Shown here in pieces: positions 1,807 through 57,251 of a stretch of DNA of 64,000 nt. Made by a program: the position numbers and the translations under genes. The stretch comes from an uncultured Candidatus Melainabacteria bacterium (GTDB taxonomy: Bacteria > Cyanobacteriota > Vampirovibrionia > Gastranaerophilales > Gastranaerophilaceae). The stretch covers positions 3,901-67,900 of the forward strand of contig CAMUPF010000008.1 in the NCBI GenBank assembly GCA_947090755.1. The letters are read 5' to 3'. Within the stretch, counting starts at the first letter, position 1. Every line of letters starts with the position of its first letter. The notes under the pieces were generated by a model. The model searched no databases. It saw only the letters and a program-made list of their open reading frames with translations, and was not told the DNA's origin.

Positions 1807-2947
1807 TTAGCGCTTGATACATCTTATAAGAGTTCCGCCGGATGTCCGTTCTTTAAGCATTCTGTCACCAGGCGCAAAGCCTATATAATAAGCTTTGTCC
1901 GCAGAAACGATTGTACTTGACCAGTATGAATTTGTGCCGTCCTCCAGTCCCCATAGTGTTCTGTTGAAAAACATTGAGGATAATTCTTCTATGTTTGGCA
2001 GCCTGCTTTCGCTGTCAAGTTGCTGGCACAATCGACCGGCATTTATTTGATTTCCCGCGGGAGCATTTTGAGGAAGCGGCAATGGCGCTACGACGACGGT
2101 ATCTGTCGGATAAAGCGCTGTAATTGCACCCATATCCTTGCCAAAAGTATTAGGGCCTTTGTTGCCGTTTAAGTCAAAAACAAAGTTTGCACACATCGTA
2201 GGCTGTGTGTATTCTCCGGTATTGGCAAGCCCCTGATTTGAGTTATGAAACCCGCAATTAGGATTATAGTAAACAACAATACTTTCGCCGTTTTGAGTTT
2301 CAAACGCCGCGGCTTTCGTATTTGTCTGGTTATACACGAAACTTGCTCCGTTAACGCTGTTTACGTGAGAACCCGAGAACATTGAATTTAAATCTGCCAG
2401 TGTTTTTGGAAACGATGAAATGGTTTGACCTTTTAGTGTTGTGAAAGTTGAGGTAATTCCGCAATCTGCGAGGTGTTCAGCGTCACATATATTGTTAATT
2501 TTAAGAACTTTTGCTAACCCTTCTGTAACGAAAGTTTCTGCGGCAGTGTCAGTTGTATCGTTTAATGTTCCGTAGCCGTTGAGTGATGGCATTAATGCGA
2601 TGGCCTGAGAGAATCTTGCATAAAGTGCCTTGCGTTGTGTGTTCCATGTGCGTTCGTTAATGTTACCCGTCAAACTAGGCAGCGTAATGGCCGCAACCAC
2701 GCCGATTATGGTTAAGGACAGCAGGATTTCGGCCATGGTAAAGGCCAAGCCGAGCAGAGCCACGGAGCAAGGCTTGCCTTGCGAAGAGACGAGCGTGCGA
2801 CGGTCAAGACCGCGCTCTTGACCGCTAACGCGAGCGGTGGCGTTTAACGCGAGGCGCAGTACCGGCGTTGCGTTAGCGTGCTCGGCTTGCCCCCCCCCCC
2901 CTACTGTACAGGCCCATATTACAAGGGGTTTCAGCTTTTGTGTTCAT
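1807..2947 (-). CDS. type IV pilin-like (prepilin) protein with DUF1566/Lcl-like C-terminal domain, paralog 1; frame broken at homopolymer tract
   Basis: ORF 1807..2763 carries A/FTMAEILLSLTIIGVVAAITLPSL (Phe+1, Glu+5 prepilin motif) and a C-terminal RLPNIEEL..YWSST..IRCIKR. SD GGAGG plus ATG at 2947 is one frame off and stops at 2873-2875. The pilin frame itself is open from 2943 downward. Confidence 0.7.
2764..2889. repeat. GC-rich hairpin-rich 126-nt block inside the leader-coding region of pilin paralog 1
   Basis: Stems gcaaggc/gccttgc (2767-2782), ggtcaaga/tcttgacc (2802-2823) and gctaacgc/gcgttagc (2824-2831 with 2870-2877). GC content is far above the flanks. No counterpart in paralogs 2 and 3. 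Confidence 0.6.
2890..2901. repeat. homopolymeric C12 (G12 on the coding strand) tract
   Basis: Counted directly: c at 2890, ten c at 2891-2900, c at 2901. Confidence 0.95.
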
Positions 2948-7689: not shown

Positions 7690-8631
7690 GTGTTAAAAGG
7701 GAAGCTGCAGATAATATTAATTACTTTCAACCGTGCAGAATGGTTGAAAAATACTCTTAACTCTGTTTTATCTGAGAATTCACCTGTTAAAGATTTTGAT
7801 ATTACGGTGGTTGATAATAATTCGACTGATAATACCGGTGATATTGTCAAGGGGTTTTGTGCGCGATTCCCTAATTTGAAGTATAAAAAAAATCGCTATA
7901 ATATTGGCGGTAACGCTAATATCGCCAGAGCTTTTGAAATGCCGGAAAAAGAGTATTTCTGGATTCTTTGCGATGATGATTTGTATGACTGGTCAGCTTG
8001 GAGTGAAGTTGAGAAGGCCATTGAGTCAAACCCTGATGTGGTAATAGTTTCACGTGAACAGTTGAAAAAACAAATAAATTTGGGCACGATTACAAAACAG
8101 CTTACGTTTTTACCGTCAGGTATTTATAAGACTGCGAATATTACTGATGATGTGATTCATGATGCACAGTTTAATATACCATTTTTATTCCCGCATTTAT
8201 CAATTGTTTGTGCTCTAATCAACAGTAAAAAAATAGATAACAGAGTGGTTGTTTCCAAAGATATTGTAATCCCTGATAATCTTAATCGTAAATATTTACG
8301 GGGAATAAATTCATCAAACGCTATGGCACGTAATACTCTTTGGATAACAGGTTTTATTAATTCTATCCAGCTTGTTGAAGATTCTAAAACCAGAAAATAT
8401 ATTCTGGATCATCTTCTGGTGCGTCCTCTGGGCTTTTTCTCAATTATAAGTGCAGAATTCAAATATAACCGTCTTTACTGCGGAAATTCTTTTAAAAACA
8501 TTTGTGATGTGTTCTGCGGAATAAGTATAGGGCAGAAATTTCAGTTTTTATTAGCACTTGTCTGGCTGGATGTTATCTATTTTATTAAAAAGTTTATTTT
8601 GCGCAATAAAAAATACATAGGAGAGAAATAA
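7690..8631 (+). CDS. family 2 glycosyltransferase
   Basis: GTG start after AAGAGGA. ITFNRAEWLKNTLNSVL..VVDNNSTDNTGDIV is a GT2 N-terminal signature. Confidence 0.75.
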   Translation: MLKGKLQIILITFNRAEWLKNTLNSVLSENSPVKDFDITVVDNNSTDNTGDIVKGFCARFPNLKYKKNRYNIGGNANIARAFEMPEKEYFWILCDDDLYDWSAWSEVEKAIESNPDVVIVSREQLKKQINLGTITKQLTFLPSGIYKTANITDDVIHDAQFNIPFLFPHLSIVCALINSKKIDNRVVVSKDIVIPDNLNRKYLRGINSSNAMARNTLWITGFINSIQLVEDSKTRKYILDHLLVRPLGFFSIISAEFKYNRLYCGNSFKNICDVFCGISIGQKFQFLLALVWLDVIYFIKKFILRNKKYIGEK

Positions 8632-9428
8632 TGAAAGTCGTAATCCTTGCAGGTGGGCTGGGAACCCGATTAAGTGAAGAAACAAAACTTGTGCCGAAAC
8701 CAATGGTTGAAATCGGCGGAAAGCCTATTTTATGGCACATAATGAAGATTTATTCTCATTACGGGTTTAACGAATTTATTATTTTAACGGGTTATAAATC
8801 TCACGTTATAAAAGATTATTTCGTCCATTACTACCAGCAATATTCTGATATAACTGTTGATATGCTGAATAATTCCGTTGAAATTCATCGTATAAAAACA
8901 GAACCTTGGAAAGTTACAATGCTCTATACCGGCCAAAATACCATGACCGGCGGACGTATAAAAAAAGCGCAGGAATATATCGGAAACGAACCATTCCTTT
9001 TGACTTACGGTGACGGGGTTTCAGATGTTAACATTGATGAATTGATTAGAAATCACAAAGCGTCAGGCAAAATCGCTACGATGACAGCGGTTCAACCGTC
9101 CGGCCGTTTCGGCGCGCTTGTTATCAAAGACGACAATATGATTACATCGTTTATGGAAAAACCAAAAGGCGATGAATCCTGGATTAACGGCGGCTTCTTT
9201 GTTTGTGAGCCTGAAGTATTTGACTATATTCCAAAAGGTGATGATGTAATTTTCGAACGCGCACCGCTGGAAAATCTTGCGAAAGACCACAAGTTAAACG
9301 CCTACAAGCACGATGGTTTCTGGCGTCCGATGGATACGCTTAAGGACAAAAACGATTTGACAGAAATGTGGGAAAGTTCCAACGCCCCTTGGGCTGTATG
9401 GCAAAATCGCGAGGTGGCTAATGTTTAA
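8631..9428 (+). CDS. rfbF: glucose-1-phosphate cytidylyltransferase
   Basis: MKVVILAGGLGTRLSEETKLVPKPMVEIGGKPILWHIMKIYSHYG is the characteristic RfbF/DdhA N-terminus. 265 aa. Confidence 0.9.
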   Translation: MKVVILAGGLGTRLSEETKLVPKPMVEIGGKPILWHIMKIYSHYGFNEFIILTGYKSHVIKDYFVHYYQQYSDITVDMLNNSVEIHRIKTEPWKVTMLYTGQNTMTGGRIKKAQEYIGNEPFLLTYGDGVSDVNIDELIRNHKASGKIATMTAVQPSGRFGALVIKDDNMITSFMEKPKGDESWINGGFFVCEPEVFDYIPKGDDVIFERAPLENLAKDHKLNAYKHDGFWRPMDTLKDKNDLTEMWESSNAPWAVWQNREVANV

Positions 9429-10503
9429 TAACATTTATGCCGGAAAACGTGTATTTTTAACCGGCCATACCGGATTTAAAGGAAGCTGGCTTGCACTCTG
9501 GCTTACAAAACTCGGCGCTGATGTTTGCGGATATTCACTTGCTCCAAACACCGAGCCTTCAATGTTTAAAGAATTGGGTATTGCGGATAAGATTTCTAAA
9601 TCCGTAATCGGAGATATACTTGATGATGCATCCATAGAAAAAGCGATGCAGGATTTTCAACCTGAAATCGTTTTCCACCTTGCTGCGCAGCCGCTCGTAA
9701 GACTTTCATACTCCGAACCTGTTTTGACTTATAAGACCAATGTTATAGGAACATTAAATGTCCTTGAAGCGGCCAGAAAATGTTCTTCTGTAAAAGCATT
9801 TGTAAATATTACGACCGATAAATGCTACGAAAACAAAGAAATTAACCGTGGTTATCGCGAAGATGAACCTATGGGAGGGCATGATATGTATTCATCATCA
9901 AAAGGATGTGTCGAAATTATGTCATCATCTTTCAGACGTTCATTCTTGCAAGAAGGTTATGCAATGGCAACTGCGCGTGCCGGGAATGTTATTGGCGGCG
10001 GAGACTGGGCTTTGGACAGATTAATTCCGGACTGTGTTAAATATATCAACGCAGGTCAAAAAATTGAAATCCGTAACCCTGTTGCCGTTCGTCCGTGGCA
10101 GCATGTTCTGGAACCGTTGTCAGGCTACTTGCTTTTAGGACAAAAACTTCTTGAACATGGTATTCATTTTGCGGATGGTTTCAATTTTGGCCCTAATGAA
10201 GACAGTGTTTTAAAAGTTGCAGAAGTTGCCCAAAAAGTTACTGAATTTTACGGCCGCGGAGAAGTCGTTGTGCATAAGCGCGATGATTTGCACGAAGCAA
10301 ATTTGTTAATGCTTAATATCGAAAAAGCAGAAAAAGTTCTTGGCTGGACGCCAACTTATACCGCTAATCAGGCTATAGAAAAAACTGTTGAATGGTACAG
10401 ACACTTCTATGCGCATGATACGGGTATGTATAACTTTACAATTAATCAAATCGAAAATTATGAGGAAAGCATAAAATGGAACAAGAATTACGCAACAAAG
10501 TAA
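9421..10503 (+). CDS. rfbG: CDP-glucose 4,6-dehydratase
   Basis: GHTGFKGSWLALWL Rossmann motif, YSSSK catalytic motif, 360 aa, overlaps rfbF. Confidence 0.9.
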   Translation: MFNNIYAGKRVFLTGHTGFKGSWLALWLTKLGADVCGYSLAPNTEPSMFKELGIADKISKSVIGDILDDASIEKAMQDFQPEIVFHLAAQPLVRLSYSEPVLTYKTNVIGTLNVLEAARKCSSVKAFVNITTDKCYENKEINRGYREDEPMGGHDMYSSSKGCVEIMSSSFRRSFLQEGYAMATARAGNVIGGGDWALDRLIPDCVKYINAGQKIEIRNPVAVRPWQHVLEPLSGYLLLGQKLLEHGIHFADGFNFGPNEDSVLKVAEVAQKVTEFYGRGEVVVHKRDDLHEANLLMLNIEKAEKVLGWTPTYTANQAIEKTVEWYRHFYAHDTGMYNFTINQIENYEESIKWNKNYATK

Positions 10504-11819
10504 AAGAGGCTGCAAAGGAATATTATTCGGCAGTTTATGGCAAAAAGAGAGAGTTTGACTACATCCCGCCAAGCGGTAAACTTTTAGGCGAAGAAGAGTT
10601 GATGAATATGATTGACGCTTCTTTGGATATGTGGCTTACGGCCGGAAGATTCAATAAAGAGTTTGAAACAAAGTTTGCGAAATATCTTGGTGTAAAATTT
10701 GCGCTTTCAACAAACTCCGGTTCAAGTGCGAATCTTCTTGCTTTTTCCGCACTTACTTCTCACAAACTCGGCGAACGTGCATTGAAGAAAGGCGACGAAG
10801 TTATCTCTGTTGCTGCAGGGTTCCCGACTACAATAAACCCGATTCTTCAACACGGCATGGTTCCGGTTTTCGTTGACTGTGAAGTCGGAACTTACAATAT
10901 CGACGCAGATAAAATTGAAGAGGCTATAACGCCGAAAACAAAAGCGATTTTCCTCGCTCATACGCTTGGAAACAGCTATGATTTAGACAAAATCATGGCG
11001 CTGGCAGAAAAATATAATTTATGGGTTATTGAAGACAGCTGTGACGCTCTGGGCGGTGAATACAAAGGCCGTAAAATCGGTACCATCGGACATATCGGAA
11101 CATTTAGTTTCTATCCTGCACACCACCTGACAATGGGTGAAGGCGGGGCGGTTATTACAAATGACCCTCAATTATACAAAATTATAATGTCATTCCGTGA
11201 TTGGGGCCGTGATTGCTGCTGTCCTCCGGGCCGTGACGGTGTTTGCGGAAAACGTTTCTCACAACAGTTGGGTAACCTTCCTTACGGTTATGACCACAAA
11301 TACACTTATTCTCACATTGGTTTTAACCTTAAAATTACGGATTGGCAAGCGGCTCTTGGCTGTTCACAAATTGATAAACTCGACAGTTTCTTAGAAATTC
11401 GTCGTCGTAACGCAGCACTTTTGACAGAAAAACTGGCGGATTTAAAAGATTACCTGATTCTGCCTGAGGTTAGAGAAGGTGTAAAACCATCTTGGTTCGG
11501 CTATTTGATTTCTGTTAAAGAAAACGCTCCGTTCACAAAACAAGAAATGGTTGAATACATTGAAAAGAAAGGTATCGGAACGCGTCAATTATTTGCGGGC
11601 AATATCCTCAGACAGCCGATGATTGTAGATAATGATGTTAATTTCAGAATTGGAAATTCCGGTTTGATAAATTCAAAAGATTTGACCGAAGAACATTATA
11701 AATTATTACCGAAAACAGATTTTATAATGAATAATACGTTCTGGGTGGGAACATTCCCTGCGCTTGGAGAAGACGAAATTTCAAGAATCTCAGACGCAAT
11801 TCATGCGTGTGTAAAATAA
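10476..11819 (+). CDS. rfbH: CDP-6-deoxy-D-xylo-4-hexulose 3-dehydrase (E1), DegT/RfbH family
   Basis: 447 aa. FRDWGRDCCCPPGRDGVCGKRF..YGYDHKYTYSHIGFNLKITD matches the RfbH-type cysteine-rich region. Sits after rfbF-rfbG. Confidence 0.8.
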   Translation: MEQELRNKVKEAAKEYYSAVYGKKREFDYIPPSGKLLGEEELMNMIDASLDMWLTAGRFNKEFETKFAKYLGVKFALSTNSGSSANLLAFSALTSHKLGERALKKGDEVISVAAGFPTTINPILQHGMVPVFVDCEVGTYNIDADKIEEAITPKTKAIFLAHTLGNSYDLDKIMALAEKYNLWVIEDSCDALGGEYKGRKIGTIGHIGTFSFYPAHHLTMGEGGAVITNDPQLYKIIMSFRDWGRDCCCPPGRDGVCGKRFSQQLGNLPYGYDHKYTYSHIGFNLKITDWQAALGCSQIDKLDSFLEIRRRNAALLTEKLADLKDYLILPEVREGVKPSWFGYLISVKENAPFTKQEMVEYIEKKGIGTRQLFAGNILRQPMIVDNDVNFRIGNSGLINSKDLTEEHYKLLPKTDFIMNNTFWVGTFPALGEDEISRISDAIHACVK

Positions 11820-11839
11820 AAGGCAGGAGCTATAGCCTG

Positions 11840-12979
11840 ATGAGCGTTGCAAAAGGTCAAAATTGCAGTATTAATTTTTTGAGATTTCTTTTTACATTCG
11901 GGATTTGCTTTATGCATCTTGTTTGTCAGGTGATTTCTCCCTATATTGCATATCCGTTGAACTATGGTAATTTTGCGGCACCTTCTTATGCTGTTGAATT
12001 ATTCTTCATAATGGCCGGTTTTTTCTTGTTTTTCAATAAAAAGCCGCTGGAGGAATACATTTCAAACCGTATAATAAGATTGTGGCCGTTGCTGGTGTTT
12101 TCAACTATTATTGCAGGGATTTTGAGAGCTTTGCATATATCAGGTATGTCATTGAAGTTTGATGATATTCTTAACTGCCTGTTTTTACAGGGAACAGGTC
12201 TGATGCAAGGCGGGGCGACTAATGGACCGGCGTGGTTCGTGGGTGTTTTGTTCTGGGTTTCTGTAATATATTATTATTGCAAAAGAGTACTTGGCAAGAA
12301 ATCATTTATTGCATTAATGATTGTTATGGCGGGTATTGGTTTGATAGTATTCGGAACCACAGGCAAGGCAAATCCGTTTGAAGGAGTCAGAGGATTCATT
12401 CTTCCCGCATGGGGGGGGGGGGGGATCTCTATGATGATGTTACGCGGTTTTACGGCTATAGGCATCGGATGTATTCTGGGAAAATTTCAGGAAATTTTTG
12501 CCGGAAGTCATGCTGCGCAGACCCTGCAAAGTGTTTCGGGCTCAAAGAAGCTTTTCACGGCTTTAGAAGTGATATTTTTCGTCGGACTGTGCGCAGTCTT
12601 ACTGGGAGGCAGCCTGATGAATATATATAGTTCTTATTTATTGGCTATGGGCTTATTTTTAATCGTGTTTTTCTTGTTTTTTAATAATTTAGGATATTTT
12701 TCCTCAAAAGTTCTAAACAGAAAAGTGTTTAATCTTCTCGGAGCTTATTCATACGCCATTTATATAATGCAGAATGTAGTATTTTATATTGTAGATTATT
12801 GTTTGAAAACTTACGAAAATCTAATTCCACATACAAATCTGGTTATAACAATTTCGATGATTTTATTTATTGTAATAGGAATTATTTCTTATTATCTGGT
12901 AAATTTCATCGTAGAAAAAACGGTACAGTTATACAATTTTATTCAAAGAGATAATATTTTAAAGGAGACAACTTTATGA
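11840..12979 (+). CDS. membrane acyltransferase family 3 (putative O-acetyltransferase), contains in-frame G14 tract
   Basis: Multi-TM ORF. The N-terminal FLRFLFTFGICFMH motif is typical of acyltransferase_3. ORF open from 11807, ATG 11840 follows AGGAG. The tract encodes WGGGG. Confidence 0.7.
   Translation: MSVAKGQNCSINFLRFLFTFGICFMHLVCQVISPYIAYPLNYGNFAAPSYAVELFFIMAGFFLFFNKKPLEEYISNRIIRLWPLLVFSTIIAGILRALHISGMSLKFDDILNCLFLQGTGLMQGGATNGPAWFVGVLFWVSVIYYYCKRVLGKKSFIALMIVMAGIGLIVFGTTGKANPFEGVRGFILPAWGGGGISMMMLRGFTAIGIGCILGKFQEIFAGSHAAQTLQSVSGSKKLFTALEVIFFVGLCAVLLGGSLMNIYSSYLLAMGLFLIVFFLFFNNLGYFSSKVLNRKVFNLLGAYSYAIYIMQNVVFYIVDYCLKTYENLIPHTNLVITISMILFIVIGIISYYLVNFIVEKTVQLYNFIQRDNILKETTL
12411..12424 (+). 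repeat. homopolymeric G14 tract (in frame, ON)
   Basis: Counted directly: 12411-12420 plus 12421-12424. Confidence 0.95.
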
Positions 12980-13794
12980 ATTCATTAGAAAAGAAAATGG
13001 TAGACACTCTCGTAGATTTGAAAGAAAATCATCACGTAGTCGGCATCAAAGCAGAATTTGAGGCTGAAGGTACAAGACTTGAAGAAGCTTTGAGATTAAA
13101 AGAAGTTGTAACAAAAGCCGGTCTTGAATTAACTATTAAAATCGGCGGATGTGAAGCTATTAAAGATATGTATGATGCAAGAACAATCGGCGTAAGCACA
13201 ATCGTTGCACCTATGATTGAAACACCTTACGCAATGAAAAAATATGTTCAGGCTACAAAATTTGTATTCCCTGAAGAAGAAAGAAAAGATGTTAAATTTT
13301 TAATTAATATCGAAACAATCACAGGTTATGCAAACCTTAAAGAAATGATTGCGTCCCCATATTTTGCTGAAATTGGCGGTATCGTTCTCGGCCGTGTTGA
13401 CATGACAGGTTCAATGGGCTTGACAAGAGAGGATATTAACTCTAAACAAATTTTTGATATTGCAAATACACTTTCTCAAGAAATGTTAAAAGTCAATAAA
13501 GATATGGTAATCGGCGGTGGTGTTTCTGCACAATCACTTCCGTTCTTTAAAGATTTGCCTGCTAACGCTTTATCAAGATTTGAAACAAGAAAAATCATCT
13601 TCGATGCGCAAAAAGCATTAAAAGACCCTAATGCTGACAAAGGTATTTTGAAAGCTGTTGGCTTTGAATTGATGTGGTTGAAAAACAAACGTGAATTCTA
13701 CGGAATGATATTCCAAGAAGACGCCGCACGTTTGACAATGCTTGAAGCAAGATACAAAAAGTTAATCGAAGAAGCAGGTGGCGTGTATGCGTAA
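12976..13794 (+). CDS. HpcH/HpaI aldolase / citrate-lyase-beta-like TIM-barrel protein
   Basis: IVAPMIETPYAMKKYV, FLINIETITGYANL and IVLGRVDMTGSMG resemble the three conserved strands of HpaI-type pyruvate aldolases. Assignment by motif resemblance only. Confidence 0.5.
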   Translation: MNSLEKKMVDTLVDLKENHHVVGIKAEFEAEGTRLEEALRLKEVVTKAGLELTIKIGGCEAIKDMYDARTIGVSTIVAPMIETPYAMKKYVQATKFVFPEEERKDVKFLINIETITGYANLKEMIASPYFAEIGGIVLGRVDMTGSMGLTREDINSKQIFDIANTLSQEMLKVNKDMVIGGGVSAQSLPFFKDLPANALSRFETRKIIFDAQKALKDPNADKGILKAVGFELMWLKNKREFYGMIFQEDAARLTMLEARYKKLIEEAGGVYA

Positions 13795-14446
13795 GGCTTT
13801 AGTGACAGGTGCCTCCCGCGGTATCGGAAAAGCCATAAAGAATTTATTTGAGGAAAGGGGCATAGTGGTTTATGCCCCTGCCCGCTCTGAAATGAATCTT
13901 TCTTCTAACGAAAGTATCAAGGCGTATGTTGAAAAGATTCCTGATGTGGATATTCTGGTTAATTGTGCAGGTATAAATGATTTAGGCTCTATTGAAGAAA
14001 TGACCGAAGAAAAGTTGCAGGAAATGATTCAGGTGAATCTTATTTCACAAACTATGCTTATCAAATATGTTTCTGAAAAGATGAAGGCTAATCGTTACGG
14101 AAGAATCGTTAATTTTGCGTCTATCTGGTGTGATTTTTCAAAAGAGCGCAGAATTATGTATTCAATAGCAAAAGCAGGAGTAAAAGGTCTGACAACAGCG
14201 GCGGCTGTTGAGCTTTCAAAATACAATGTCCTTGTTAACGCAGTAGCTCCGGGGTTTGTAAATACTGAAATGACTTCGCAAAATAACACCCCTGAACAAA
14301 TTGAGGCGCTTGCGCAGGCACTCCCTATTAAACGTATGGCAGAACCTGTCGAAATCGCTGAATTCGTTTATTTCCTTTCAAGTGAACAAAATTCTTTTAT
14401 TACCGGTCAAACAATTTTTGCAGACGGAGGTTTTTCATGTGTTTAG
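13787..14446 (+). CDS. short-chain dehydrogenase/reductase (FabG-like)
   Basis: TGASRGIGKAI cofactor motif, YSIAK catalytic motif. ATG overlaps the upstream stop (ATGCGTAA). Confidence 0.8.
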   Translation: MRKALVTGASRGIGKAIKNLFEERGIVVYAPARSEMNLSSNESIKAYVEKIPDVDILVNCAGINDLGSIEEMTEEKLQEMIQVNLISQTMLIKYVSEKMKANRYGRIVNFASIWCDFSKERRIMYSIAKAGVKGLTTAAAVELSKYNVLVNAVAPGFVNTEMTSQNNTPEQIEALAQALPIKRMAEPVEIAEFVYFLSSEQNSFITGQTIFADGGFSCV

Positions 14447-15516
14447 ATAAATTGACGGTTAAGTCTAATATAAAAAATTACGATGTGTTTTTTGAAAATG
14501 ACGCATCATTTCTGAAATCACTTTCTGAAAAAGAAAATAGCGTTTATGTCGTTGATGAAAATGTGTACGAAGCGCATAAAACAGGTTGTCTTTCAACTTT
14601 ACCGCAGGAAAGATTAATAATCCTTCCAATCGGCGAAGAAATGAAAAATATTGATTCTGTTTGCAGTTTGTATGAAAAAATCATGCGATTTGCACCTCGT
14701 AAAAACCTGAATCTAATTTCCATTGGGGGCGGTATTACTCAGGATGTAACGGGTTTTGTTGCATCGTCTTTGTATCGCGGTGTAAACTGGATTTTTGTTC
14801 CGACGACTTTACTTGCGCAGGTTGACAGTTGTATCGGCGCTAAGACTTCATTAAATTTCAACCATTACAAGAATCTAATAGGAACGTTTTATCCGCCATC
14901 AGAAATCCATATTTATCCTGAATTTTTGAAAACTTTAACAAAAGCGGATTTTTATTCAGGTGTTGGCGAAATGGCTAAATTACATTTGATGAACGGTGAA
15001 TCTGATACAAAAGTTTTTGTGGATTCTCTGGAAGCTATAGATAGACTTGAGCCGCAAACTTTATTGGAACGCACGCAAAACTGTCTTAAAATCAAAAAAT
15101 CATACATTGAGGATGATGAATTTGATACAGGCAAAAGAAATATGTTGAATTACGGTCATTGTTTTGGTCATGCGATTGAAAGTTCAACAGACTTTGCGAT
15201 TTCTCATGGTCAGGCGGTTGTTGTCGGTATGATTCTGGCAAACAAAGAGGCCTTAAGACGTGGAATTTTAAGCGCGGAAAACGAAAAGTATATCCGTGAA
15301 AATGTTTTAGAACCTGTATTAAAGGTGCAAGTTCCGGATGTAGATGCAGCAAAAACCGTTGCCGCAATGGGACAGGATAAGAAAAATCTTGGTAAAGGTT
15401 TAGCCCTTGTCATGATTCAAGATGGCTATGAAATGGTGAAAATCACTGATATGACTACACAAGAAGCTGGAGAAATATTGAAAGAATGTCAAAAATTAAA
15501 TTATCAGACTATATAG
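14437..15516 (+). CDS. 3-dehydroquinate synthase-like sugar-phosphate cyclase superfamily protein
   Basis: GGGITQDVTGFVASSLYRGVNWIFVPTTLLAQVDSCIGAKTSLNF parallels the AroB core, with HCFGHAIE metal-site histidines. Confidence 0.7.
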   Translation: MCLDKLTVKSNIKNYDVFFENDASFLKSLSEKENSVYVVDENVYEAHKTGCLSTLPQERLIILPIGEEMKNIDSVCSLYEKIMRFAPRKNLNLISIGGGITQDVTGFVASSLYRGVNWIFVPTTLLAQVDSCIGAKTSLNFNHYKNLIGTFYPPSEIHIYPEFLKTLTKADFYSGVGEMAKLHLMNGESDTKVFVDSLEAIDRLEPQTLLERTQNCLKIKKSYIEDDEFDTGKRNMLNYGHCFGHAIESSTDFAISHGQAVVVGMILANKEALRRGILSAENEKYIRENVLEPVLKVQVPDVDAAKTVAAMGQDKKNLGKGLALVMIQDGYEMVKITDMTTQEAGEILKECQKLNYQTI

Positions 15517-17261
15517 CAAAAAGATTGAAAGAATGTTATAATGTAGAACACTTTTTTATGGTTTCCGGAGGCGGTGCAATGCACTTAAACGACAGCCTTG
15601 GAAAATACATCCCCTATACCGCAAACCATCACGAACAGGCTTGCGCTATTGCGGCGGAGGGTTATGCAAGGGTTAATCAGAAACTCGGCGTTGTAAATGT
15701 TACAACCGGCCCCGGAGGTTTGAACTGTCTAAACGGTGTTTTTGGCCAGTGGACAGATAGTGTACCTGTTTTGTATATTTCCGGTCAGGTAAAATTTACC
15801 ACAACAATGGCCTCTTGTCCGGAAGTTCCTCTGCGTCAGCTTGGTGATCAGGAGGTTGATATTATTTCCTGCGTCAAACCGCTTGTGAAGTATGCTAAAA
15901 TGGTAACTGAACCTAATGAAATAAAATACCACCTTGACAGAGCGATTTATGAAGCTACAACCGGTCGTATGGGACCTGTTTGGCTGGATATTCCGATGAA
16001 TGTTCAAGGCGCAATGATAGATGAAGATGAATTAAAAGGATTTACTCCGCCATCTGCTAAAGTGTATGATTTGAAAATTGCGCAGGTCGTTGAAAAATTA
16101 AAATCCGCAAAACGTCCGTTAATCGTTGCGGGTTACGGTTTAAGACTGGCTAAACAGGAAGAAAATTTCTTAAAACTTCTTGAAAACACTGATATTCCTG
16201 TGGTTACAACGTTTAACGGAATGGATTTACTCTCGTCAGACCATAAAAACTTCTGCGGTCGAATCGGTACAGTCGGTCAACGTGCGGGTAACTTTACGCT
16301 TCAAAACGCGGACGTGATTTTGTCCCTCGGAACCCGTAACAATATTCGTCAGGCTAGTTACAACTGGGAAAATTTTGCTAAAAATGCTTATAAAATGGTT
16401 GTCGATATTGACAGCGCTGAACTTGATAAACCGACAGTGGTTCCGGACTTGAAAGTTAACGCGGATTTGAAAGAATTTTTGCCTGCTCTTATAAAAGAAT
16501 TCCCGACGCTTGATGTTAAAGAATGGGCAAGTTTTTCTAAAAATTTACAGGCAAAATATACTTTTGAAAAAACAGAGCAATATCAGTCTAAAGACGGTGT
16601 TATCAATGTCTATGATTTTGTTCATACATTGAGTGAAGTTATGAGTGAAGGTGACATTGTTGTTGCCGGAAACGGCTCTGCCTGTGTTTGTACACATCAG
16701 GCGGCACATGTTAAGCCTGAACAGCGAATTTTCTGGAATTCAGGTGATGCATCAATGGGTTATGACCTGCCTGCGGCGCTTGGGGCCTGTTATGAAGCAA
16801 ATGGCAGAAATGTAATCTGTTTGACCGGCGACGGCTCAATAATGATGAATATTCAGGAACTTCAAACCGTTGCGTTTAATAAGTTACCGCTGAAAATTTT
16901 TGTTATTAATAATGCCGGTTATTCCTCAATAAGACAAACTCAAAGGAATTTCTTCAGCGGTCGTATGACGGGTTCAGGCGATGACAGCGGTGTGAGCGTT
17001 CCGGATTTTTGCAAACTCGCAGAAGGCTTTGGTCTTAATTCGGTAAGAGTTTCTAATCCTGTGACAATGAAAGAGGATTTGGCTGCGGTATTGAAAATGG
17101 ACGGCCCTGTGGTTTGTGAAGTAATGGTAGAAAAAGAATATGCGTTCTCTCCTAAATTATCTGCACGAAAACTGGACGACGGAACAATGGTTTCTCCTAG
17201 TTTGGAAGATATGTTCCCGTTCCTTGACAGGGAGGAATATGAAAGGAATTTGTTAAAATGA
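15486..17261 (+). CDS. thiamine-diphosphate-dependent enzyme, acetolactate-synthase-like (YerE-like candidate)
   Basis: 591 aa. The TPP-binding motif GDGSIMMNIQELQT..NN and the N-terminal HEQACAIAAEGYAR are typical of the ALS/YerE family. Confidence 0.8.
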   Translation: MSKIKLSDYIAKRLKECYNVEHFFMVSGGGAMHLNDSLGKYIPYTANHHEQACAIAAEGYARVNQKLGVVNVTTGPGGLNCLNGVFGQWTDSVPVLYISGQVKFTTTMASCPEVPLRQLGDQEVDIISCVKPLVKYAKMVTEPNEIKYHLDRAIYEATTGRMGPVWLDIPMNVQGAMIDEDELKGFTPPSAKVYDLKIAQVVEKLKSAKRPLIVAGYGLRLAKQEENFLKLLENTDIPVVTTFNGMDLLSSDHKNFCGRIGTVGQRAGNFTLQNADVILSLGTRNNIRQASYNWENFAKNAYKMVVDIDSAELDKPTVVPDLKVNADLKEFLPALIKEFPTLDVKEWASFSKNLQAKYTFEKTEQYQSKDGVINVYDFVHTLSEVMSEGDIVVAGNGSACVCTHQAAHVKPEQRIFWNSGDASMGYDLPAALGACYEANGRNVICLTGDGSIMMNIQELQTVAFNKLPLKIFVINNAGYSSIRQTQRNFFSGRMTGSGDDSGVSVPDFCKLAEGFGLNSVRVSNPVTMKEDLAAVLKMDGPVVCEVMVEKEYAFSPKLSARKLDDGTMVSPSLEDMFPFLDREEYERNLLK

Positions 17262-17971
17262 AAAGCATAATTTATGCAATGGTTCCTGCAAGAGTCGGAA
17301 GCACACGTTTAAAATTAAAGAATATTCGTTTGCTTCACGAGAAACCGTTAATCTGGTATGGGGTAAACGCCGCGCAAACCGCCGGATTTTTCGATAAAGT
17401 TTTTATAAATTCCGATGAAGGTCTGTGGGGTAAACTCGCGCAGGACTACGGGTGTGAATTTTATCATCGTAATAGCGAATTCGCTACCTCTATTTCTACT
17501 GCTGATGATGTTATATATGACTTTTTTAAGAATAATCCCGAATGTGATTTCCTTTTCTGGATAAATACAACAAATCCTTTCCAGCCGTATGAGGATTATG
17601 CAAAAGCATTTGAGTACTTTATTGATAATAATTTAGACGGGTTGATTACGACAACAAAGGATAAAATTCATACAAGGTTTATGGGTAAGCCTCTTAACTA
17701 TAATGCAAATGATAAATTACCTAAAACTCAGGATATTGAACCGGTAGAAGTTTTTGCTTTTCCGTTTAGTATCTGGAGAAGAGAAAGTTTTATAAGAAAT
17801 TATGAAAATCACGGTTATGCTTATCTTTGCGGTAATATAGGCTACTGGGAAGTCAATAAACTTGCAGCAGTTGAAATCGATGATGAGGAAGATTTTCTTT
17901 TCGCTAATGCAATTCTTTATGGACGTGATAATCCTTTGTGTTACAAAAAAGAATATGCAAAATTGGATTAA
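17258..17971 (+). CDS. acylneuraminate/ulosonate cytidylyltransferase family protein (CTP_transf_3)
   Basis: AMVPARVGSTRLKLKNIRLLHEKPLIWY matches the NeuA/KdsB-type N-terminal motif. Confidence 0.75.
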   Translation: MKSIIYAMVPARVGSTRLKLKNIRLLHEKPLIWYGVNAAQTAGFFDKVFINSDEGLWGKLAQDYGCEFYHRNSEFATSISTADDVIYDFFKNNPECDFLFWINTTNPFQPYEDYAKAFEYFIDNNLDGLITTTKDKIHTRFMGKPLNYNANDKLPKTQDIEPVEVFAFPFSIWRRESFIRNYENHGYAYLCGNIGYWEVNKLAAVEIDDEEDFLFANAILYGRDNPLCYKKEYAKLD

Positions 17972-17973
17972 TA

Positions 17974-18695
17974 ATGAAAAGATTTCTAAGAAAAATTTTG
18001 GGTAAAAATAAAACGCAATATTATGACATTTGCGGGGATAATAATAAATTAATTATTATTGAAAATGGTGTTGAGCGTCTGGCGAACAAGGAAACTATTC
18101 TCGGTTTGTGGGTTTCGATACACGGAAATAACAATACCGTAAAGTTAGAACTTCCGATTCATTTTGAAAATTCATCTATTATAATTTCGGATTCTGATGA
18201 GGCTGACATTTTTATCCGCAAGACTCAGCATCACGTTAAAAATTTTTCGGTAAATTCACGCCTGCATAGCGGCCATAAACTATTTATTGATGAAGATTTT
18301 TATTGCAACGGGGCAACAATTTTGCTAAGAGAAGAAAACGCGTCGGTAAAAATAGGTAAAGATTGTATGTTTTCGTGGGGAATAACTATATGGACTTCTG
18401 ACGGACATTGTATTTTTGATAATACAACCGGCGAACTGTTAAATGACCCATCCGGGGGGGGGGGGGCCTCATCGGTAATCATGTATGGGTAGGCTGCAAC
18501 GTTAATTTATTGAAAAATTCGAAAATCCCTGACAATTCGGTCGTTGCGTTAGGGGCAATTATTTCTAAAAGATTTGATGAGGAAAATATTTTGCTCGTTG
18601 GCACAAATGAAGTTAAGAAAAGAAATATTCGATGGACAAGAGATTTTATAACTGATTATAAAAGGAGTAAATGTGAAAGTATTAATAGATTCTGA
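17974..18695 (+). CDS. left-handed beta-helix (hexapeptide) acetyltransferase, split by G13 tract (OFF frame)
   Basis: The upstream ORF ends 26 nt after the tract. The other frame reads LIGNHVWVGCNVNLLKNSKIPDNSVVALGAIISK, a classic hexapeptide transferase C-terminus. 14 or 11 G would fuse the two parts. Confidence 0.75.
18454..18466 (+). repeat. homopolymeric G13 tract
   Basis: Counted directly: 18454-18460 plus 18461-18466. Confidence 0.95.
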
Positions 18696-20197
18696 TTATT
18701 TTTTTATAAGGGATATGTATTATCGTTCCTGCGGCCATACACTTAATACTATTAATATTTTGAAACGTTTTTTCGGCGAAGATTTATTAAAGGATTTCAG
18801 GTGTGTTATTTCTGAAACTGTTTATTACCAGTTAAATGAAGAAGAATTATCCGGTATTAATCCTGTAGTGATTTTTGACAGGGAATTGCGGGATATTTTT
18901 GAGGATAAATTTATATCGCACAATGAAATTGTCGAAAAGTTTTATTACGGCAATTTGACCCCTAACAATCTACAGGATTTGAAGGCGCTTTATTCTCGCA
19001 AACTGGAAGGTTTTGTGCCGGATTTAGTTATGCAATTTGAATATCATAATAAATGTTATGACGATATTTTCCCTAAGGCGTTTAAATTAACCTTTCAGGG
19101 CGGACTTTTTAAAAGGGGAATTGGGCCTGAAACTTATATTATTGACCCCTCAGGCAGCTTTAAGGATTCATCTTTAAATATCTTTCGTGATGAAATTAAC
19201 AATTTCGTAATTTCTGAACAACAAAACACACTGATTGATAACTTTAAACGCCGCCTTAGTAATCTTATAAAAGAGAATACATCTTTTATTTCTACCTTAT
19301 TAGCGCCTTATAAAGAGAAGTTTGATTATCTTGTTTTGCTTCCGTTACAAATGAGTAATCATTATGGTTTTGATACTGAAACAGGATTTAAAACGCAGTA
19401 TGACTATCTTGAATATGTACTGGATAATGTTCCTAAAAATGTCGGGGTAATCGTAACAGAACACGACCATGGCCGTTTTCTTGAAGAAGGAACCTTCGGA
19501 AAAGGCGGATTCTTAGAATGGTTTGAAAACAAGTATGAAAATTTGGTATACATTAAAGAACTGCGGGGGGGGGGGGGGGTATTCCTCTCCGTCAATATAT
19601 TTCTTGCCGGAGGTTGATGCTGTGATAAATGTTTCGTCCTCAGTCGCCCTGACTGCAACTTTATTCGATAAAAGAATAATATCACTTGGTAAAACTTATA
19701 ATAATTGTTTTAAGGATACTCAGGGATTAGAAAACATTATTGAAGTTTTAAGCAAACCGGTTAGAAATAAAAATTCGTTTTTATTCTGGTTTTTGACTAA
19801 ATATGTTTTTTTCGAAAAACAGTTGAATGATAAATCTTTTATGTACCAATATTTATGTGATTCCATAGAAAAATTCAAGAATGAAGGAGTAACTTTTGCT
19901 TACTTTACGCAAATGAATGGAATCGAAGAGGCTTGTGATTCTATTGCAGGGTATATTGAAAATGTTTTCATTACAGAGCGCCGCAGGCAGGAAGATGAAA
20001 GGCTTGCGCAAGAGGCAGAAAGGCTTGCAAGGGAAAAGGAAATAGAAGAAGCAAGACTACGCGAAGAGGAGCGAAAACGGCGGATTGATAAAAAACGTGA
20101 AAGATGTAACCGGTTCGGAATCTATTACGAGGCAAAACATATTATTATCGGCCTGTTCGGGCTTAAAATAAAATTTAGAAACTATTTGGAGGAATAA
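18673..20197 (+). CDS. capsule-synthesis (KpsC/KpsS-like, PF05159-like) protein with C-terminal charged coiled coil, split by G15 tract (OFF frame)
   Basis: YLVLLPLQMSNHYGFD and VIVTEHDHG before the tract. YSSPSIYFLPEVDAVINVSSSVALTATLFDKRIISLGK after it, in the -1 frame. 14 or 17 G would fuse them. Family call by motif resemblance. Confidence 0.55.
19565..19579 (+). repeat. homopolymeric G15 tract
   Basis: Counted directly: 19565-19570 plus 19571-19579. Confidence 0.95.
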
Positions 20198-20200
20198 TTT

Positions 20201-21265
20201 ATGAATACAATTTTAAAAGAAGATTTTGATTATATTCTTGGCGATAAGAATATTGATTGGTCAGAATTAGCAGGTACGACAATTCTGGTTTCCGGAGCAT
20301 CAGGATTCTTGCCCTCATATTTGATAAAAACGCTTTTATACCTGAATTCTCTCGGTGTCCAAAAACCCGTCAAAATCCTTGCACTTGTAAGAAATATTGA
20401 CAAAGCAAAAGCTAAATTTAAAGATTCACTCAATGACAGTAATTTAGTGTTCCTTGCACAGGATGTTACAAAACCGATAGAAGTTCCTGAAAAAATTGAT
20501 TATATTATTCACGCAGCAAGTCAGGCCAGCCCTAAATTCTTTTTCTCCGATCCTGTAGGAACTATCAATGCCAATACTCTGGGTACAAGTAATTTACTGG
20601 CTCTTGCAAAAGAAAAAGAGGTTAAAAGTTTCCTATATTTTTCATCCGGCGAAGTATGCGGTGACATTTTTGAACATAAAAATCTTGTATCAGAAGATGA
20701 TTACGGGATTGTTAACCCGTTAGATGTTAGAAATTGCTATTCAGAGAGTAAAAGAATGGGCGAAAATATGTGTTTTTGCTGGAATTACCAGTATGGTGTT
20801 CCGGTAAAAATCGTAAGACCGTCGCATACTTATGGCCCCGGATTTAGTTTTGACGATGGCAGAGCGTTTACAAGTTTTGTGGCCTCTGTGGTTAAGGGCG
20901 AAGATATTGTGTTAAAAAGTGACGGCAGTGCAAAAAGGTCTTTTGTCTATCTGGCAGATGCAGTAAGAGCGTATATTTTTGTACTTTTAAACGGTCAGAA
21001 CGGTGCCGCTTACAATGTTGGCTACGATGGTGAAATAAGTATTCTGGAACTGGCAAACCTTCTTGTTTCTCTGGCTGATAACAAAAATATTAAAGTTCGT
21101 CGTGAAATTTCAGGTAATGCCCCGAGCAGTAAAGTCGCAAACGGACTCCTCGATATCAGTAAATTAAAAGCTATGGGCTGGTATCCGAATATTTCAGAAG
21201 AAAAAGGGTTTAAAAGAACTATTGACTACTTTCTTCAGGAATTAGAATTGGAGACCGTGCACTAA
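20201..21265 (+). CDS. NAD-dependent sugar epimerase/dehydratase (extended SDR)
   Basis: VSGASGFLPSYL cofactor motif and YSESK catalytic motif. 354 aa. Confidence 0.8.
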   Translation: MNTILKEDFDYILGDKNIDWSELAGTTILVSGASGFLPSYLIKTLLYLNSLGVQKPVKILALVRNIDKAKAKFKDSLNDSNLVFLAQDVTKPIEVPEKIDYIIHAASQASPKFFFSDPVGTINANTLGTSNLLALAKEKEVKSFLYFSSGEVCGDIFEHKNLVSEDDYGIVNPLDVRNCYSESKRMGENMCFCWNYQYGVPVKIVRPSHTYGPGFSFDDGRAFTSFVASVVKGEDIVLKSDGSAKRSFVYLADAVRAYIFVLLNGQNGAAYNVGYDGEISILELANLLVSLADNKNIKVRREISGNAPSSKVANGLLDISKLKAMGWYPNISEEKGFKRTIDYFLQELELETVH

Positions 21266-29396: not shown

Positions 29397-30415
29397 ATGA
29401 AAAACAATATTGTAAACATTTTGACAGGGGGGGGGGGCCTCTCTTAACAGGCTTCACTATGGCGGAGATACTTCTGTCATTAACAATAATCGGTGTGGTT
29501 GCGGCGATAACGCTTCCGTCGCTGACAGGCAACATTAACGAACGCACATGGAACACCCAGAGAAAAGCACTTTATGCCCGTATGAGTCAGGCGATTGCCC
29601 TAATGCCGGCGTTGAACGGTTACGGAACTTTGACAGAGGGCAACGAATCAACGTCAGCCGTCGACACCGCTGCCGAAACTTTCGTCACGGAAGGCCTTTC
29701 AAAAGTTCTCAAAATTAATAATATTTGTGACTCCGACCACCTCGCGGATTGCGGTATACCTACCCAATTTAATAATATCGGTGGAGATGTTGTATCTACC
29801 TGGCCTCAAACTTTTGTTGCTTTGAACGGGATGTTTAACGGTTCCTATGAAAACTATGATGGTTCAAGTGTAAATGTTATTTGGACTTATTCACAAACAG
29901 ATACGAAAGTCGCGGCATTTGAAACCGCAAATGGAGAAAGCGTTGCTGCGTATTATAATCCTTATTGTGTAGGTAATTTTAATGAAACAAATGAATATTA
30001 TATTCAACCTAAAGTTTGTGCAAATTTTATATATGACTTGAATGGATCTAAAGGACCTAATACTGTTGGGAAGGACATTGGGTTTATGACGGTATTTTAT
30101 CCTACTGATTCAGTTGTAGTTGCGCCTCATCCTTCGGTTAGACTTGCGACAAACCAGCGGGTTGTGCAGGCTGAGGCAGGGGCGGCCTGTTTCGCGCTGG
30201 ATAATGAAACAAGAGTTCCCAATATTCATGAGATTGCGTCTATGTTTACGAATAGGCTGTTAATGAAATCTACAATCACTGAAACAGGAACTAATGGGAT
30301 TTGGTCGGGTTCAAAATATTCTGCGTCTTATGACTGGTTATTCAACTGGGCTTGTGGAAAATGTATGTTGAAAGACCATGCTTGGACAGGAAATGTTTGG
30401 TGTATAAATCGTTAA
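29397..30415 (+). CDS. type IV pilin-like (prepilin) protein with DUF1566/Lcl-like C-terminal domain, paralog 2; leader interrupted by G11 tract (OFF frame)
   Basis: RBS GGGAGAAAGGA, ATG 29397, MKNNIVNILT, then G11, then TAA at 29445. With 12 G the frame reads GGGGPLLTG/FTMAEILLSLTIIGVVAAITLPSL and joins ORF 29459..30415. C-terminal RVPNIHEI..IWSGS..VWCINR. Confidence 0.8.
29427..29437 (+). repeat. homopolymeric G11 tract
   Basis: Counted directly: 29427-29430 plus 29431-29437. Confidence 0.95.
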
Positions 30416-55590: not shown

Positions 55591-55776
55591 ATGGCACCGG
55601 ATTTGAAAAAGATTGAACAGATGGCAGAAAAAATTCTTAAGATTATTATCGTTATGCGATATTATTGCAAGCAAAGCGAAGACGAGTATGAAATGGGGAA
55701 TGTCATACCGCTTATTGATATTTTATGGAAAGAATCTGACAATTTGGTTTGTGAAATTTGCGGGTTTAATGATTAA
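55591..55776 (+). CDS. hypothetical small protein
   Basis: AAAGGAG RBS, ATG 55591, 61 aa. Divergent from the XRE gene, with TTGACA-17-TATAAT in the spacer. Confidence 0.5.
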   Translation: MAPDLKKIEQMAEKILKIIIVMRYYCKQSEDEYEMGNVIPLIDILWKESDNLVCEICGFND

Positions 55777-57251
55777 AGTTCTTCGTAAATTTCAATCGGG
55801 GCGTAGAAGGAAACTTCTTCGCGCGCAAGAACACTGACTTCATTGAAATAGCTTGATAGCATTTTGAATATCAGGTGGCGGAATTCAAGCGGAACAATTA
55901 TTGTACGGCAATTGTATTTCGTCATTAGTTTTTCAAGCTTTTTAGCCAGTTGATCAGCGTATTTTGCGTCGATTTTGATGATTTCTTCGTCTTCCTCTTC
56001 TTCAACGGCTGTTTCGCAGACGTTTAGGAGCGAATCTTCTGTGATTTCGATTGCAGGGATTACGCCGTCTTCGTTTACAAAATTCCTTGTAATCTGGCGG
56101 CCGATTGAAAGACGCAGTTTGCGCAAAATGTCTGATTTGTCGCAATCGTTCGCAAAATCATTAATTTTTTCTAAAATAAATGTGATGTCTTTTATTGAAA
56201 CTCTTTCATTGATGAGGCTTGTCAGAATGTATCTTAAATCTGCAAGGGTTAAAAATTCAGGGATTAGGTTTTCGATTAAGTAGGAGTTGTTTTCATCAAC
56301 GACTTCGATGTAGTTGTCAAGTTCGTTGTAGTCTAAGATTTCGTCAACAAATTTTACAGCGATAAATTCCAGCGCGCGGGTTATGCATTGAGCGCCGGAA
56401 AGTCCTTTTTCCCAGAAGTCTTTGCATTTTGTTTTTGGAACCCATACGATTTTTTTGCCTGAAATGGCGTCATCGTCATAGATTGCGTCTTTAATTTTTT
56501 TGTCGGTAAGGATATTGTCAGCGAAAAACATCAGATGATTAGGGTAGACGATTCCTCTAAAGACTTCCAGCCCGCGGATTTTTATGGTGTATTCGTAAGG
56601 GCTCAGGGTTTCGTCGTCCTTAAAAACGATTTTAGGGATTACGTAACCCAGTTCTTCGGTGAGTTTAAGGCGAAGTTTGACGGTTTCTGCGATAAGTTCT
56701 TCTTCGTCGATATCCTGTTCTGCGTCGATGTAGCCGAGGATTTCTTCGCTTAAAGTTATGGCAAGCTTGTCTTCGTGAAGTTTTTTGTACATACCTTCGG
56801 GCGAAGTGGTTTCCGCAAGCTGGCGCTTGAGTTCTTCAAGTTCGCGCAAACCCGTTGATATTCTGTCGTTAAGGCGTTTGCGGCCAAGTGAGGCAGGCGC
56901 TTCGTTTTCGAGTTCTTTTTTTGCGCGTGCAACTTTGTTTTTAACTTCTTTGATTTTGTGTTGGATTTCAAGGCACGCTTCATAGGGTGTAAGTGTAGGG
57001 GATAGAAGTTTTTCCATCTGGCTTTTGAAGTTAGAGATGTTTATTTCGTCCGTGTTTCGGGTGTAATTTTCGTCTTCGGATTCTTTCATAAAAATGCAGT
57101 TGTACTGATAGCCTTCATCCATTTCGACTTCGTTGATGGTGTAGAGTTCCCAGCCGTTCATAGACATTTCGTTCAACAGGTTTTGAAGAGCCTGTGTGTC
57201 TTCGCTTGAACAGGTTTTGATAACATATTGCATTTTCTTGTTTTTAAACAT
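55773..57251 (-). CDS. soluble protein with DUF4177-like N-terminus, coiled coil and FlhA C-terminal (FHIPEP cytoplasmic) domain; no transmembrane region
   Basis: LTEELGYVIPKIVFKDDETLSPYEYTIKIRGLEVFRGIVYP and LTSLINERVSIKDITFILEKINDFA closely parallel conserved FlhA-C blocks. The N-terminus NGWELYTINE.. is DUF4177-like. Confidence 0.65.
   Translation of the reverse strand: MFKNKKMQYVIKTCSSEDTQALQNLLNEMSMNGWELYTINEVEMDEGYQYNCIFMKESEDENYTRNTDEINISNFKSQMEKLLSPTLTPYEACLEIQHKIKEVKNKVARAKKELENEAPASLGRKRLNDRISTGLRELEELKRQLAETTSPEGMYKKLHEDKLAITLSEEILGYIDAEQDIDEEELIAETVKLRLKLTEELGYVIPKIVFKDDETLSPYEYTIKIRGLEVFRGIVYPNHLMFFADNILTDKKIKDAIYDDDAISGKKIVWVPKTKCKDFWEKGLSGAQCITRALEFIAVKFVDEILDYNELDNYIEVVDENNSYLIENLIPEFLTLADLRYILTSLINERVSIKDITFILEKINDFANDCDKSDILRKLRLSIGRQITRNFVNEDGVIPAIEITEDSLLNVCETAVEEEEDEEIIKIDAKYADQLAKKLEKLMTKYNCRTIIVPLEFRHLIFKMLSSYFNEVSVLAREEVSFYAPIEIYEEL

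Follow-up and report, generated by a model that had tools for sequence, protein, structure and literature searches.

Among described systems, pglI of Neisseria meningitidis and Neisseria gonorrhoeae is the closest analogue of the gene analysed here. It encodes an O-acetyltransferase of the acyltransferase-3 (AT3) family that acts on the protein O-glycan, and it is phase variable, with a poly-G tract in its coding sequence (PMC10425976, PMC9558356). The present analysis concerns a 64-kb stretch of DNA from an uncultured gut bacterium of the Melainabacteria, called the window throughout, in which a stand-alone AT3 gene contains a run of 14 G's (G14). This tract is probably a contingency locus, which would make the gene a slipped-strand phase-variable O-acyltransferase and one of several switches in a glycan locus. 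At its present length the tract is in frame, a state called ON.

The likeness to pglI has several sides. Both genes belong to the AT3 family and have a coding poly-G tract; in both, the acetylation of a surface glycan is, or in the window would be, set by the ON or OFF state; and other glycan genes under known or putative repeat control lie nearby (PMC10425976, PMC9558356). The two systems also differ. PglI is a fusion of AT3 with an SGNH domain, whereas the window protein is AT3 only. Neisseria belongs to the Pseudomonadota and the window to the Melainabacteria/Vampirovibrionia, and the proteins have no meaningful sequence similarity beyond that of the family.

A different type of repeat is found in oafA of Haemophilus influenzae. 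Here a tetranucleotide repeat lies near the 5' end, unlike the mid-gene homopolymer of the window, and the acceptor is a heptose of the lipooligosaccharide (LOS). The protein is nevertheless similar, in that it is a phase-variable AT3 protein that alters an epitope of the surface glycolipid (LOS) and serum resistance (PMC9558356).

Another set of relatives consists of Oac/OacA of Shigella phage and WbaK of Salmonella. To our knowledge, intragenic repeats do not control these genes, and variation comes about through phage carriage or through presence or absence of the gene. Like the window protein, they consist of AT3 only, have a length of about 330-380 residues and the motifs RxxR and R/K-X10-H, and are encoded in or beside O-antigen clusters (PMC9558356).

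Finally, the locus as a whole resembles the poly-G contingency loci of Campylobacter jejuni and Helicobacter pylori, since in each case a gut bacterium of low GC content has multiple G tracts concentrated where its surface glycans are encoded. In those species several G tracts of about 9-15 nt lie in the clusters for capsule, LOS and flagellin glycosylation, and their ON and OFF states combine. The tracts of the window are longer (11-15 nt), and the phylum is another one. Campylobacter lacks mismatch repair.

The acyltransferase and its poly-G tract

The AT3 gene (Table 1) encodes 379 residues. Its start codon ATG is preceded by AGGAG, 9 nt upstream, and its stop codon occupies 12977-12979. 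The acyltransferase-3 family named in the original prediction is upheld by a full-length match to Pfam PF01757 (E 4.7e-24; score 85.5 bits, cut-off 31), in which residues 10-349 align on profile positions 3-323 of 326. No model of NCBIfam matched the protein.

Two motifs are essential and widely conserved in AT3 proteins, namely R/K-X10-H in the first transmembrane helix and RxxR in the first cytoplasmic loop (PMC9558356). Both are present in the window protein. The first consists of R15 and H26 with 10 residues between them (FLRFLFTFGICFMHL), and both residues are invariant in the two alignments made (A1 and A2). The second is R77-I-I-R80 (NRIIRLWP), of which R80, together with W82, is invariant among the aligned homologues. 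These motifs lie N-terminal of the tract, and a conserved block, S304-Y305-x-I307-Y308-x-x-Q311, lies C-terminal of it. A frameshift at the tract thus takes away the whole C-terminal half of the protein, including this block. Pfam found the AT3 domain alone, with the protein ending at residue 379 and no SGNH domain; the protein therefore belongs to the stand-alone AT3 type and not to the AT3-SGNH fusions such as OafA, OafB, OatA and PglI.

An AlphaFold2 model made with ten homologues (predicted local distance difference test score, pLDDT, 81; predicted template modelling score 0.84) is almost wholly a bundle of long helices, and the hydropathy peaks agree with it. As modelled, the product is a polytopic membrane protein of about 10 helices. 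The sole internal stretch with a pLDDT below 50 covers residues 175-194, between a helix at 153-173 and a helix at 198-222, and it is Gly-rich in all homologues. The residues encoded by the tract fall at the end of this stretch and just beyond it. Because confidence is low there, the tract is read as encoding the end of a flexible loop between two predicted helices, in which 3, 4 or 5 glycines should be equally acceptable.

Structural searches with this model in Foldseek gave non-significant E-values only; of the meaningful matches the best was to HGSNAT, a membrane acetyltransferase (probability 0.97, template modelling score 0.43, E 0.18). A sequence-profile search of the PDB found no solved relative. 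Judged by its family and by its location in a cluster with CDP-sugar and glycosyltransferase genes, the protein would catalyse the acyl-CoA-dependent O-acylation of a glycan acceptor.

The tract itself was located by direct reading and by a script, which agree on exactly 14 G's preceded by T at 12410 and followed by ATC. It spans part of W191 and G192-G195, where the reading frame gives ...P-A-W-G-G-G-G-I-S-M-M-M.... The position, the W-G-G-G-G reading and the open frame along the full length of the gene are as originally predicted. When the length is changed in silico, the frame is kept at G11, G14 and G17. The original prediction held that a change of one nucleotide in either direction would truncate the protein after about 195 residues. 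This is right for the loss of one G, since G13 gives a product of 197 residues; in the G13 and G16 state a stop follows within two codons past the tract. It is not right for the gain of one G. With G15, as with G12, the product has 262-263 residues, of which 194-195 are native and the other 68 form an out-of-frame tail.

Runs of at least 11 G's occur in the window far beyond chance expectation. The window has a G+C content of 39.4%, and the 11-G word is found in it 15 times, in five tracts. The expected count is 0.04, and none of 100 dinucleotide-preserving shuffles reaches 15. Poly-G may also arise as a read artefact of two-colour chemistry. This origin is ruled out for the tract in the AT3 gene, which is internal, has conserved coding flanks in more than 10 assemblies and aligns with Gly codons of its relatives.

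Tract lengths among relatives and rival explanations

The comparison of tract length among strains, which the original prediction had proposed, could be made in public assemblies, and its outcome supports that prediction. Two assemblies are almost identical to the window, one from the European Nucleotide Archive, ENA (L001, ERZ13657772; 99.96% identity), and one from Logan (L002, SRR13440551; 99.99%), and both have G14. A sister lineage is represented by seven assemblies from different ENA analyses, which are 84% identical to the window in nucleotides and 99.7-99.96% identical among themselves. In these the same site has G12, G13 or G15 (Table 1), all of them OFF. The protein forms extend to further contigs: 7 have the G15 form and 4 have G12 forms (P0025 on 7, P0026 on 3). 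Three of the sister-lineage proteins (P0004, P0025 and P0026) share the tail frame and the stop position predicted for G12 and G15 in the window. The G12 and G15 alleles are one Gly apart, on the same background of single-nucleotide polymorphisms (SNPs), and come from the same assembler or naming scheme.

More distant relatives show what the loop looks like elsewhere. The best AT3 hit among one-genome-per-species representatives is 57% identical, the window's own species being absent there for this gene. Orthologues at this level of identity, in syntenic clusters (L004, L005, L008, L010 and L011), encode the loop as GGC GGA GGA TGG or GGC GGC GGC TGG, without a repeat. In a rabbit Gastranaerophilales metagenome-assembled genome, MAG (L006, which shares its contig with L013), a homologue of 43% identity carries a G11 of its own in this loop. 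It is OFF, and would be in frame at 10 or 13. The Gly-rich loop is therefore old, and it became a homopolymer in some branches. The original prediction was to be given up if relatives encoded the Gly run with mixed codons and deep data showed no variation in length. The mixed codons are there in the 57%-identical orthologues, but lengths do vary between assemblies and the 43%-identical homologue has a homopolymer of its own.

In the sister lineage the gene is intact but for the tract. All indels between its assemblies lie within G tracts, except for a 10-nt deletion upstream of the tract in L007, on a contig of 3.5x coverage, and the tract is the sole lesion in 6 of the 7 assemblies. Resetting it to G14 in silico restores an uninterrupted reading frame of 380 residues in L003, L124 and L127. 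Over codons 1-190 the ratio of nonsynonymous to synonymous substitution rates (dN/dS) between the window and L003 is 0.05; over codons 196-379, read in the ON frame, it is 0.15. The region that is out of frame in the sister assemblies has therefore evolved as coding sequence, although the synonymous rate between the lineages is saturated (above 1) and the ratios speak of long-term constraint rather than of the recent past.

Under the favoured reading, slipped-strand mispairing during replication would add G's to the tract or remove them, and such changes would be frequent and reversible within a population. With 11, 14 or 17 G's a full enzyme of the 10-helix class would be made, having 3, 4 or 5 Gly in its loop. 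At other lengths the frame would be left after residue 194 or 195; the N-terminal acyl-CoA-binding motifs would be kept and the C-terminal half lost. The truncated product is presumably inactive, and the cluster's glycan would then be made without an O-acyl (probably O-acetyl) group on its acceptor sugar. G tracts are also present in two neighbouring genes of the cluster, and single cells could thus bear varied combinations of glycan decorations. This variety could help to evade phage or host antibody.

Several observations weigh against a working switch, beginning with the saturation just mentioned. In the window strain the tract has one and the same length throughout the available assemblies (the window, L001 and L002), which may not be independent samples. 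All 12 tract-carrying contigs of the sister lineage are OFF, which random phase would rarely give, and no lineage is seen to have both states. The uniform OFF state may reflect selection for OFF, recent loss of the gene, or leaky expression through transcript slippage. This uniformity and the lack of a lineage with both states are also what would be expected if the tract were a mutational hot spot without switch function that arose by drift in a Gly-rich loop, the window strain being still in frame by chance and the gene of the sister lineage being an early pseudogene; the additional deletion in L007 and the 57%-identical orthologues, which work without a tract, agree with this too. We regard that explanation as unlikely. 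A single lesion in an otherwise complete gene speaks against it, as do tracts that remain long (12-15) and uninterrupted. Since G12 and G15 share one SNP background, moreover, a change from the first to the second must go through G14, which is ON, or jump by 3 nt. A G11 arose independently in the same loop of the 43%-identical homologue, other AT3 genes of the order carry G tracts too, and long G runs in loci of the order have their G's almost always on the AT3-sense strand (see below).

The measurement itself is another source of doubt. Tract lengths were taken from assemblies of short reads, and these are prone to error at G12-15. Where near-identical assemblies differ by substitutions, the differences bunch within about 15-30 nt 3' of G tracts, as do 6 of the 10 between L124 and L003; such sites are 2908 and 2928 in the window, and 13685-13699 and 18478-18486 in L003. 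This suggests local sequencing error, or else real local mutagenesis. It is conceivable, then, that all length differences are artefacts of sequencing or assembly, the true tract being stable and the gene expressed constitutively in all lineages. Illumina accuracy falls within and after long G runs, and the names of several contigs indicate low coverage (3.5-10x). Even so, this is very improbable. Several independent assemblies agree on G12 and several others on G15, the contigs counted above coming from different analyses with both MEGAHIT-style and SPAdes-style names; a gap of 3 nt is not the usual error, which is of plus or minus 1; and the flanks of the tract are perfectly conserved in more than 10 assemblies. 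Two scans of JGI metagenomes had no further alleles to offer. An exact pattern across the tract with a variable gap (GCATGGGGGGGGN{0,12}TCTCTATGATGATG) had no match in their DNA, and a protein-alignment scan found no extra alleles, having among the matches listed relatives of at most 39% identity.

The tract might also act as a dimmer rather than a switch. Slippage of RNA polymerase or of the ribosome would then give mixed products from a tract of any length, and alleles that are OFF in the DNA would be leaky. This would explain why the gene of the sister lineage is otherwise intact while it is OFF in the DNA of every assembly. Transcriptional slippage on long homopolymers is established for runs of A or T, but it is less documented for runs of G or C, and a pure dimmer is quite improbable. 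Slippage of this kind is compatible with switching at the DNA level and would act on top of it.

The glycan cluster and other tracts of the window

The AT3 gene lies in a cluster of co-oriented genes for glycan biosynthesis. The cluster begins with a GT2 gene, followed by genes for an RfbF-like protein (glucose-1-phosphate cytidylyltransferase-like), an RfbG-like protein (CDP-glucose 4,6-dehydratase-like), the RfbH equivalog (667 bits against a cut-off of 423) and the AT3 protein. After these come an HpcH/HpaI-like protein, an SDR, an AroB-related putative sugar-phosphate cyclase and a ThDP enzyme of the acetolactate-synthase type. The 3' part encodes a PseF/KdsB-like cytidylyltransferase, an LbH acetyltransferase-like protein, an unknown 489-residue protein and an epimerase/reductase. 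From this gene content, the cluster is a predicted surface-glycan locus built around a pathway of the CDP-3,6-dideoxyhexose type. The AT3 stop codon overlaps the ATG of the next gene (ATGA at 12976-12979). Since the downstream gene has its own AAGGAG, polarity of an AT3 frameshift is possible and not required.

Flanking and cluster proteins are 80-98% identical in amino acids to those of a contig of Candidatus Gastranaerophilus phascolarctosicola Zag_221 (L017). When the AT3 protein is compared with one-genome-per-species contigs, nearly all of its better hits carry the label Gastranaerophilales or Melainabacteria. The window is therefore from a gut Gastranaerophilus (Melainabacteria/Vampirovibrionia).

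Table 1. Features of the window, with tract alleles of the sister lineage
Feature	Position	Strand	Basis or state
Stand-alone Acyl_transf_3 (AT3) membrane acyltransferase gene, 379 residues	11840..12979	+	ON; Pfam PF01757, alignments, AlphaFold2 model
Low-confidence stretch (pLDDT below 50), codons 175-194	12362..12421	+	AlphaFold2 model; sole internal such stretch; tract begins in its 3' end
G14 homopolymer, proposed slipped-strand switch	12411..12424	+	Tract reading, frame test, shuffle test, lengths at the orthologous site
Out-of-frame tail of the G12/G15 OFF state, 68 residues, stop TAG at 12628-12630	12425..12630	+	In-silico length change
Co-oriented glycan-biosynthesis cluster holding the AT3 gene	7690..21265	+	Pfam and NCBIfam matches; starts and stops mostly overlapping
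G13 in a hexapeptide-repeat (LbH, maltose/WbbJ-type) acetyltransferase-like gene (17938-18492)	18454..18466	+	OFF; allele comparison
G15 splitting an unknown gene into the reading frames 18673-19617 and 19523-20197	19565..19579	+	Allele comparison
C12 (G12 of the minus strand) in a pilin-like paralogue (1807-2947, minus strand)	2890..2901		OFF
G11 in a type IV pilin-like gene (29397-30415)	29427..29437		Leader-peptide coding part
Small tyrosine recombinase, 180 residues	24144..24686	-	
FlhA-like reading frame	55773..57251	-	
Sister lineage, G12	L003, L127, L128		OFF
Sister lineage, G13	L007		OFF
Sister lineage, G15	L124, L125, L126		OFF

Just upstream of the AT3 gene, the window has T at 11817. 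This creates a TAA stop, and the RfbH-like protein has 447 residues. L001 and L002 have G at this position (GAA), which extends the RfbH-like protein by 7 residues to a TGA that overlaps the AT3 ATG; the 454-residue form is also found in the sister lineage and in L017. The difference is either a strain SNP that uncouples the RfbH-like and AT3 genes or an error.

Two further tracts of at least 11 G's lie within the cluster. At the tract in the LbH acetyltransferase-like gene, G14 gives a product of 240 residues in L001, L003 and L125, and G15 gives a split gene in L124. The cluster therefore has a second acetyltransferase, of the cytoplasmic type, and this one may be phase variable too. At the tract that splits the unknown gene, G14 gives the intact 489-residue protein in L124 and G12 a truncated one in L125. 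The split gene has no match in Pfam or NCBIfam. L001, which is otherwise 99.96% identical to the window, differs from it at both of these tracts, having G14 where the window has G13 and G15. Its reading frame at the second tract nevertheless ends about 47 nt before the tract, just where it has T in place of G (window position 19516).

In the sister lineage the AroB-related gene carries an additional tract, G13 or G14, at its 3' end (L003 13672-13684; also L124, L125 and L127). Its AroB-like product has 363, 367 or 376 residues, as set by the tract and the bases after it. Downstream of this gene lies a HAD-hydrolase gene, which the window does not have.

The remaining two tracts lie in type IV pilin-like genes. 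In one gene, G11 is found in the part coding for the leader peptide, and translation from the ATG at 29397 stops after 16 residues. With G12 the product would have 339 residues and a start divided as MKNNIVNILTGGGGPLLTG/FTMAEILLSLTIIGVV, a typical prepilin leader. A second class of poly-G switch, now OFF, seems to be present here. A paralogue of 58% identity on the minus strand, with its ATG at 2947, has G12 after a similar short leader. With G11 or G14 its frame would continue across a GC-rich segment of about 150 nt and enter the pilin body, for a product of 379-380 residues, and a GTG at 2763 could yield a form that does not depend on the tract. The GC-rich segment has no match in Rfam (best E 0.61), and it folds no better than its shuffles (z = -0.73).

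A small tyrosine recombinase gene stands at the edge of the glycan cluster and adjoins tRNA genes. Recombinases of 181-190 residues are found beside the homologous clusters of L004, L005, L006 and L011. An invertible promoter near the recombinase was considered as an alternative switch and rejected, since there are only weak, scattered inverted repeats and terminator-like hairpins.

Elsewhere in the window, the FlhA-like reading frame matches the FHIPEP profile (657 positions) from position 310 to 653 only. Upstream of it, no reading frame of at least 120 residues for the N-terminal membrane half was seen. FliM/N-like genes lie nearby.

Poly-G tracts across the Gastranaerophilales

Loci labelled Gastranaerophilales or Melainabacteria have 4.0 runs of at least 9 G's per 100 kb; for the other loci the density is 0.35 per 100 kb. 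In the loci so labelled, 21 of 22 such runs have their G's on the AT3-sense strand. Thirteen runs (11 in these loci) fall inside an AT3 homologue or no more than about 200 nt from one, at its 5' end, near residue 315, or at its 3' end. There is a reasonable, if moderate, likelihood that the order has a poly-G "phasome", consisting of sense-strand tracts in glycan loci, in AT3 genes (5' end, mid-gene loop and 3' end) and in the leader regions of type IV pilin-like genes. A search of the open-access literature found nothing that ties Melainabacteria, Gastranaerophilales or Vampirovibrionia to phase variation, homopolymers or poly-G.

Ca. G. phascolarctosicola (L017) has a different gene in the slot between the RfbH-like and HpcH-like genes. 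Two genes further on lies another AT3 gene (L017 10031-11131; 29-30% identical), with G10 at 11096-11105, about 30 nt before its stop. AT3 homologues of 26-31% identity in four other MAGs (L016, L018, L028 and L080) have G10-G11 at about the same 3' position. L004 and L005 share the gene order as well as an identical AT3 protein (P0002), yet near the 3' end of their GT2 genes L004 has G10 (18086-18095) and L005 has G11 (14005-14015), with products of 374 and 373 residues.

An AT3 gene switched by poly-G is a known mechanism; what is new is the lineage, an uncultured Gastranaerophilus, which is a non-photosynthetic relative of the cyanobacteria. Phase variation of glycan O-acetylation by homopolymers is textbook knowledge in a handful of cultured pathogens. 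Here it would occur in a commensal lineage of humans and animals that is known from metagenomes only, and the support for it is a natural allelic series from public assemblies. Taken as a single tract, the locus is a solid but unsurprising case.

If the pattern holds across the order, the consequences would be wider. Gastranaerophilales would be under strong and fluctuating selection directed at the surface, by phage or by IgA. Gene calls in the glycan loci of their MAGs would be systematically misannotated as frameshifted or split, and tract-length spectra in existing gut metagenomes could read out surface selection in situ. These commensals would then have the combinatorial surface variation that is characteristic of Campylobacter or Neisseria.

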